Below are positions 1 through 447 of a stretch of 447 nt of DNA, one piece after another. Origin of the DNA: Escherichia coli (lineage in GTDB: Bacteria > Pseudomonadota > Gammaproteobacteria > Enterobacterales > Enterobacteriaceae). How positions within the stretch are numbered: position 1 is the first letter of the stretch; each line of letters starts with the position of its first letter. The position numbers and the translations under genes are program-made. The stretch lies in the NCBI RefSeq assembly GCF_003334335.1, contig NZ_QOWQ01000189.1; one strand, given 5' to 3'. The notes beneath the pieces were generated by a model. That model saw only the letters and a list, made by a program, of their open reading frames with translations, searched no databases and was not told where the DNA came from.

Positions 1-152
1 ACCCACTGTGGAATGAGGCCAAAGTGCTGCGGCCAGAAGCTGATGCGCTGTTCATCAGGGACTATGGTGGCAACCAGCTGAGGCTGGTCATTCCCTGATG
101 CAGCGGTTACGGAAACAGAAGGAGTGGTGGAATTATGCAAGACGGTTGTCAT
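1..152 (-). CDS. Antirestriction protein, ArdB/KlcA/YfjX family; N-terminal 50 codons, 5'-partial in window (continues past position 1)
   Basis: ATG is the complement of 150-152, with an in-frame stop upstream (complement of 216-218) and no alternative ATG/GTG/TTG between them. An AAGGA Shine-Dalgarno (complement of 161-165) sits 8 nt upstream. The frame is open to the window edge. Translation: MTTVLHNSTTPSVSVTAASGNDQPQLVATIVPDEQRISFWPQHFGLIPQW. The VPDEQ-I-FWPQHFG-IPQW block matches my recollection of E. coli YfjX and the corresponding region of plasmid KlcA; this is recalled similarity, not a search result. Confidence 0.75.
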   Translation of the reverse strand, partial: MTTVLHNSTTPSVSVTAASGNDQPQLVATIVPDEQRISFWPQHFGLIPQW

Positions 153-160
153 GAGATTAT

Positions 161-165
161 TCCTT
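161..165 (-). promoter_or_regulatory. Shine-Dalgarno sequence (AAGGA) for the antirestriction CDS
   Basis: Minus-strand AAGGA followed by an 8-nt spacer (AUAAUCUC) and then the ATG at 152-150. Confidence 0.6.
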
Positions 166-243
166 ATAAAAAGTAAATGAATGGAAGAAATCCCGGGGGA
201 AGGGACAGACGTGAGTCAGAACTGCGCTTTCAGGGAAACGGCA

Positions 244-447
244 TCAGCGCATACTCTCCAGCAGCGTTTCAGCCATCACCCACAATGCGCGGTTGAGCTT
301 AATGTCGGTGTCGATGCTGTGAATGGCACGGGTATGGATACGTTTTCCTCTGGCACTGCGACCGGAAATCCCGCCTTTCAGCATATTCTCCTGAATGGTC
401 TGATAAGCACTCCACAGGTCCTTACCGTAATCCTCCCGGCGTCGTGG
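244..447 (-). CDS. Hypothetical protein, C-terminal 67 codons plus stop; 3'-partial in window (N-terminus lies beyond position 447); family not recognised
   Basis: Minus-strand frame is open from the window edge to TGA (complement of 244-246). Translation: PRRREDYGKDLWSAYQTIQENMLKGGISGRSARGKRIHTRAIHSIDTDIKLNRALWVMAETLLESMR*. The sequence is protein-like with mixed composition and a basic tract (GRSARGKRIHTR). It is in the same orientation as the downstream antirestriction gene, 91 bp upstream of it. The other two minus frames are interrupted by stops. Confidence 0.65.
   Translation of the reverse strand, partial: PRRREDYGKDLWSAYQTIQENMLKGGISGRSARGKRIHTRAIHSIDTDIKLNRALWVMAETLLESMR

Follow-up and report, generated by a model that had tools for sequence, protein, structure and literature searches.

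The window, a stretch of 447 bp of Escherichia coli DNA, contains four copies of the hexamer CTGATG or its reverse complement CATCAG, which are very probably a chance coincidence of a word that is intrinsically common in this organism and that was noticed post hoc, and which would thus carry no function at the level of the motif. The positions reported for these copies in the first-pass annotation are exact: CTGATG is found at 40-45 and 95-100 and CATCAG at 53-58 and 242-247, with the copies at 40-45 and 53-58 forming a 6-bp inverted repeat with a 7-nucleotide spacer within the coding region of an antirestriction gene, which is read from the minus strand and whose start codon is located at 152-150. 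Three of the copies are located at the start of the antirestriction gene, each in a codon context unrelated to the other two, and the fourth is created by the last arginine codon and the TGA stop of the upstream DUF932 gene in combination with two bases of the spacer. Since two of the copies mark both ends of one 9-bp inverted repeat, fewer than four coincidences are independent.

The window is 100% identical to a region of the strain SMS-3-5 (NC_010498.1, 2265900-2266346) and of many other strains. Among 5426 complete E. coli genomes, 4464 contain a match to it, at a median of three places each. In SMS-3-5, it is located inside a CP4-type island adjoining a tRNA-Ser gene, at the junction between the DUF932 and the antirestriction gene. 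The genes of this island are arranged in the order GTPase, Ag43, DUF932, antirestriction, JAB/RadC, DUF987, hypothetical, YeeU-CbtA, DUF5983, DUF957 and DUF4942, and the same order is found in nine further E. coli strains. The locus is thus an ordinary member of the cryptic islands of the CP4-44/CP4-57 type, which comprise a GTPase, Ag43, DUF932, an ArdB/KlcA antirestriction protein, RadC/JAB, DUF987 and the YeeU-CbtA toxin-antitoxin pair; the CTGATG hexamer is not among the described features of these islands. The features of the window that are relevant for our analysis are as follows:

1-152, minus strand: 5' part of the ArdB/KlcA-type antirestriction gene (first 50 codons; WP_000214307.1), with its ATG at 152-150
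153-243, no strand: spacer of 91 bp between the DUF932 and the antirestriction gene, the most variable stretch among copies
447-244, minus strand: 3' part of the DUF932 gene (last 67 codons and stop; WP_001234732.1), with the stop TGA read from 246 to 244
40-45, plus strand: copy 1, CTGATG (CATCAG on the coding strand), cgC-ATC-AGc, encoding R-I-S, phase 2
53-58, minus strand: copy 2, CATCAG on the plus strand (CTGATG on the coding strand), cCT-GAT-Gaa, encoding P-D-E, phase 1
95-100, plus strand: copy 3, CTGATG on the plus strand (CATCAG on the coding strand), gCA-TCA-Ggg, encoding A-S-G, phase 1
242-247, minus strand: copy 4, CATCAG on the plus strand (CTGATG on the coding strand), cgC-TGA-TGc
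46-105, minus strand: predicted mRNA stem-loop in antirestriction codons 16-36, lineage-specific and without covariation

Copies 1 to 3 are contained within the first 113 nucleotides of the antirestriction gene, where they are clustered within 61 bp, and copy 4 consists of the last base of the final arginine codon of DUF932, its TGA stop and two bases of the spacer. The antirestriction gene extends past the left end of the window, and its full protein of 161 amino acids matches the Pfam family PF03230 (Antirestrict, ArdB/KlcA family) with E = 3.2e-37 between residues 66 and 161. The hexamers are located before this domain, in an N-terminal extension (residues 18-38). A scan of the window found neither a sigma-70-like promoter nor the pattern of an intrinsic terminator, and a search of the same region against Rfam retrieved a single match at the level of chance (190-269, with 15.4 bits compared to a gathering score of 90, E = 0.36), which is unrelated to the hexamers. 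On the plus strand, an open frame enters the window at its left end and runs antisense to the antirestriction gene from 3 to 98, where it ends with a stop (translation PLWNEAKVLRPEADALFIRDYGGNQLRLVIP). This frame does not correspond to an annotated gene and is unannotated in every record examined.

In some strains, copies of the island are in decay. The antirestriction copy of strain NC19 (L011 4667-5151) carries a 1-bp deletion at the equivalent of window position 10 and is annotated as frameshifted, and an IS3 element interrupts the neighbouring cbtA in EDL933. The island around the window also includes a lone gene encoding the M-subunit of a Type I restriction-modification system, which abuts IS1B (L001 25743-28005), and no S or R subunit is annotated beside it. 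This gene is apparently the remnant of a system.

The weight that can be attributed to four copies depends on the frequency at which the hexamer is expected. The value of 0.2 occurrences put forward in the first-pass annotation assumes equal base frequencies and is too low, with realistic nulls ranging from 0.40 to 0.89. Dinucleotide shuffles of the window place the expected count between 0.40 and 0.46 per window, a 215-kb portion of the core genome of the same strain provides an expectation of 0.51 per window, equivalent to 1.15 per kb, and the remainder of the island one of 0.89 per window. In the 215-kb core, CTGATG/CATCAG ranks 54th among 2080 strand-merged hexamers, with about 2.7 times the median count. 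CTG, ATG, GAT, CAG and ATC are favoured codons in E. coli, and we infer that the hexamer is common since it is built from them. Considered alone, four copies of the hexamer in the window are nominally rare, with P of about 0.0005-0.005. At least four copies are found in a fraction of 0.0002 of the dinucleotide shuffles and in 2 of 444 core windows, and four copies are present in 0.0005 of shuffles of synonymous codons, which keep both proteins and the codon usage of each gene.

Since the hexamer was picked because it was repeated, the right statistic is the maximum count over all hexamers, and the post-hoc choice was thus corrected by use of the largest count reached by any strand-merged hexamer in a window. 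Some hexamer with at least four copies is present in 20% of the dinucleotide shuffles, in 11% of the synonymous-codon shuffles, in 51% of overlapping real windows of 447 bp within the locus and in 54.5% of non-overlapping windows of the core genome. With a maximum count of at least four in 11-55% of null and real windows, the window is therefore typical. The modest enrichment claimed in the first-pass annotation, which itself rated its significance as weak, thus holds as a nominal excess of the hexamer considered alone, but the count ceases to be unusual after correction for its post-hoc choice, and the option of chance, which had been listed next to codon context and a methylation or recognition motif, finds support in both kinds of shuffles and in the counts from real windows.

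A nominal excess of the hexamer is also found on the scale of the island. The 10-kb CP4-type module contains 23 copies, twice the 11.5 that the rate in the core would predict (Poisson P = 0.002), and the module without the window contains 19 copies, compared to 11.0 expected (P = 0.018). This excess is surpassed by that of 69 other hexamers, so that CTGATG ranks 70th of 1798, and stronger enrichments are found for CCCCGG (21 copies versus 3.3 expected), CCCTGA (21 versus 4.4) and CAGGGA (18 versus 4.2), all of which are distributed across many genes. The two-fold excess of CTGATG in the island is an ordinary compositional difference of acquired DNA, and an island-wide enrichment of the motif was rejected in light of its rank of 70 and the differing composition of the island. 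With respect to the frequency in the surrounding region, which had been proposed as a refuting comparison, the hexamer is thus nominally more abundant than in the genome background but not beyond the general composition of the island. When the proteins are held fixed, all coding sequences of the island together contain 20 copies, compared to 13.7 expected (P = 0.008). Under these conditions, the excess originates mostly from the antirestriction gene, which contains 4 copies compared to 1.2 expected given its protein (P = 0.003), with no other gene outlying.

Two words, CCCTGA/TCAGGG and CAGGGA/TCCCTG, are enriched four- to five-fold in the island (L001 15563-25600) relative to the core, which is far above the enrichment of CTGATG, and they are found in most genes. 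Within the window, TCAGGGA is present as a heptamer in three places (55-61, 92-98 and 230-236). The enrichment of CCCTGA/CAGGGA probably reflects the differing codon and oligonucleotide usage of the island.

The comparison with related islands relates the persistence of the copies to the conservation of the surrounding sequence. In an alignment of ten E. coli copies of the locus, which are 83-100% identical overall, copy 1 is present in all ten and copy 2 in nine. Copy 3, which is located in the variable N-terminal part, is present in six and replaced by CTGGTG or CTGAAG in the others, and copy 4 is present in nine and changed to TATCAG in CFT073. The number of hexamers per homologue ranges from two to four, and no gain of new or compensating copies was seen among the homologues. 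The identity among copies varies between blocks of the window:

1-62: mean identity 98%, range 94-100% among copies
63-152: mean identity 81%
153-243 (spacer): mean identity 79%, range 54-97%
244-447: mean identity 95%, range 93-97%

Across 14 related copies, the retention of the hexamers tracks the local conservation of the protein, with copy 3 being the only copy in a variable stretch and also the one that is decaying. Copies 1 and 2 are conserved, yet the whole block 1-62 surrounding them has a mean identity of 98%, and both copies are lost in the homologue from Klebsiella pneumoniae, which retains the neighbouring DEQR...FWPQ codons but reads CCCCGG at the position of copy 1 and CAGATG at the position of copy 2. 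As judged from these alignments, the persistence of the copies in related islands would be a by-product of the coding conservation of the surrounding blocks, and no sign of selection on the hexamer itself is apparent. Beyond these copies, a search with a degenerate pattern of 34 nucleotides in one genome per species detected two loci only, in E. albertii and in an Enterobacteriaceae MAG, and a plasmid collection contained few informative copies, with distant matches covering the DUF932 part only and one Klebsiella copy being useful.

The pattern of conservation along the window is mosaic. The outer blocks 1-62 and 244-447 are conserved at 93-100%, which must include synonymous positions, and for those copies the identity of antirestriction codons 1-30 and of the spacer falls to 54-63%. 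The mosaic suggests either that paralogous islands have recombined or that the N-terminal segment evolves fast.

Two alternatives to chance concern codon context and recognition by an enzyme. Following the first, the repeats would reflect a recurring amino acid or codon-pair context in the encoded proteins. All copies are located in coding sequence, save part of copy 4, and the hexamer can be read as the favoured codon pairs CTG-ATG and CAT-CAG. However, none of the copies in the antirestriction gene is read in frame as either of these pairs, their phases are 2, 1 and 1, the residues they encode (R-I-S, P-D-E and A-S-G) are unrelated and copy 4 spans the stop codon of DUF932. In light of these three differing contexts, the overlap with a stop codon and an expected count of only 0.54 per window in synonymous shuffles, where proteins and codon usage are fixed, codon context does not account for the repeats and is in our view a very improbable explanation. 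The second alternative, which we regard as still less probable and in fact exceedingly unlikely, holds that a restriction-modification system recognising CTGATG, such as a Type III system resembling PstII, targets the copies, and that these might be retained for methylation, for regulation or as a sensor tied to the antirestriction gene. Type III enzymes need inversely oriented sites, and the window contains copies in both orientations, with those at 40 and 95 on the plus and those at 53 and 242 on the minus strand. The locus also encodes an antirestriction protein. The ArdB/KlcA proteins are protein inhibitors of Type I systems, whose sites are bipartite, and to our knowledge they do not act through sites in their own gene. 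CATCAG is in turn recognised by the Type IIG enzyme PlaDI. In Providencia stuartii, the Type III enzyme PstII has CTGATG as its published site, in which it methylates the adenine at position 4 (PMC3874151, PMC2790903, PMC8259958). The resemblance to the PstII system thus comprises an identical hexamer and the inverse orientations required for Type III cleavage, but it is a string match only, at a frequency in the window that does not exceed background after correction for the post-hoc choice. Most short words match the site of some enzyme and such a match carries little weight, and neither PlaDI nor PstII is linked to the locus of the window. Moreover, the hexamer belongs to the most frequent ones of the E. 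coli core, where it is neither avoided nor special, and a departure in frequency beyond that of other words, as in case of a Type III-like site, was not found in either the core (rank 54 of 2080) or the island (rank 70 of 1798). The copies are not retained beyond coding constraint and are lost freely in diverged homologues, and the only restriction-modification gene nearby is the lone Type I M-subunit next to IS1. From the suggested recognition motif, it is thus the match to the PstII site that stands, whereas neither a departure from background nor a retention beyond coding constraint was found.

A further alternative concerns the inverted repeats in which the copies are paired. A perfect 9-bp inverted repeat, CATCAGGGA (53-61) and TCCCTGATG (92-100), has copies 2 and 3 at its ends, and copies 1 and 4 are contained within an 8-bp inverted repeat, GCTGATGC (39-46) and GCATCAGC (241-248), which is why the four copies amount to fewer than four independent coincidences. 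Copies 1 to 3 could in this respect be part of a real structure of RNA or single-stranded DNA in the 5' coding region of the antirestriction gene, where copy 2 would pair either with copy 3 in a stem of 9-14 bp or with copy 1 in a local hairpin of 6 bp, and where a switch between both pairings could modulate translation or the stability of the mRNA. The region 46-105 is predicted to fold with an energy of -30.8 kcal/mol (z = -2.97, with 2 of 200 shuffles folding as well), into an interrupted outer stem of 14 bp, in which 105-101 would pair with 50-46 and 100-92 with 61-53, and an inner hairpin of 7 bp. A similar fold is predicted for the copy of ST131 (z = -2.74), and one pair of the inner hairpin, and this pair alone, shows changes on both sides (CG in 5, UA in 3 and UG in 2 cases). 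In contrast, z is only -1.39 in EDL933, which like ST131 is one of the closer copies, and the structure is not retained in diverged copies, with z-values of -0.11 in strain 21964, 0.01 in ET479 and -0.49 in Klebsiella. In a test for covariation based on an alignment of 15 sequences, 12 of which are distinct, 8 of the 14 pairs of the outer stem vary by breaking only, with one pair broken in 9 of the 12 distinct sequences, and the overall covariation score is matched by 68 of 500 shuffles. The hairpin of 6 bp formed by 40-45 and 53-58 is invariant among E. coli copies and lost in Klebsiella and is thus uninformative. A 9-bp inverted repeat would by itself be expected about 0.4 times in 447 bp, assuming approximately 10^5 pairs of positions divided by 4^9. 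A conserved RNA structure was thus rejected as candidate, as the fold is stable here but lost in diverged copies and without covariation, and a real structure involving copies 1 to 3 appears to us unlikely, although less so than either of the two explanations discussed above.

In its predicted stem-loop located 48-107 nucleotides downstream of the start codon, and in the availability of two alternative partners for one arm, the region resembles hairpins in 5' coding regions that modulate translation. It differs from them by the lack of conservation and covariation, and by the fact that neither the ribosome-binding site nor the start codon is overlapped. An operator-like placement was not found in the window, where the 6-bp and 9-bp inverted repeats are both located inside coding sequence (codons 18-38) and where no promoter-like site was detected. 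We consider it highly improbable that a lineage-specific structure with two states, formed early in the antirestriction mRNA or in a transferred single strand, tunes the expression of the gene. The predicted hairpin is best interpreted as an accident of this lineage, in an N-terminal coding stretch that evolves fast, and the hairpin may have a modest local effect on the mRNA.

Several observations speak against the coincidence of a common word that we favour. These include the rarity of the hexamer taken by itself (2 of 444 core windows, P = 0.0005 in synonymous shuffling), its abundance in the antirestriction gene (4 compared to 1.2, P = 0.003), and the proximity of three copies within 61 bp, two of which are part of a 9-bp inverted repeat in a region whose fold is more stable than that of most shuffles (z = -2.97). 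None of these residual oddities holds up when the post-hoc choice is corrected for or homologues are compared. With the true background frequency of the hexamer and its post-hoc choice both taken into account, there is no real enrichment.

Collectively, our analysis illustrates that the count of a hexamer noticed post hoc in a short window has to be corrected for how frequent the word really is in the background, which in the present case amounts to 2.5 to 4 times the expectation from uniform base frequencies, and in a second step for the roughly 2000 words that could equally have caught attention. Corrected in both respects, the window resembles typical E. coli DNA and the repetition of CTGATG in it has little significance. 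All that is left is an inverted repeat specific to this lineage, located where the N-terminal coding sequence of a very common island gene is variable.
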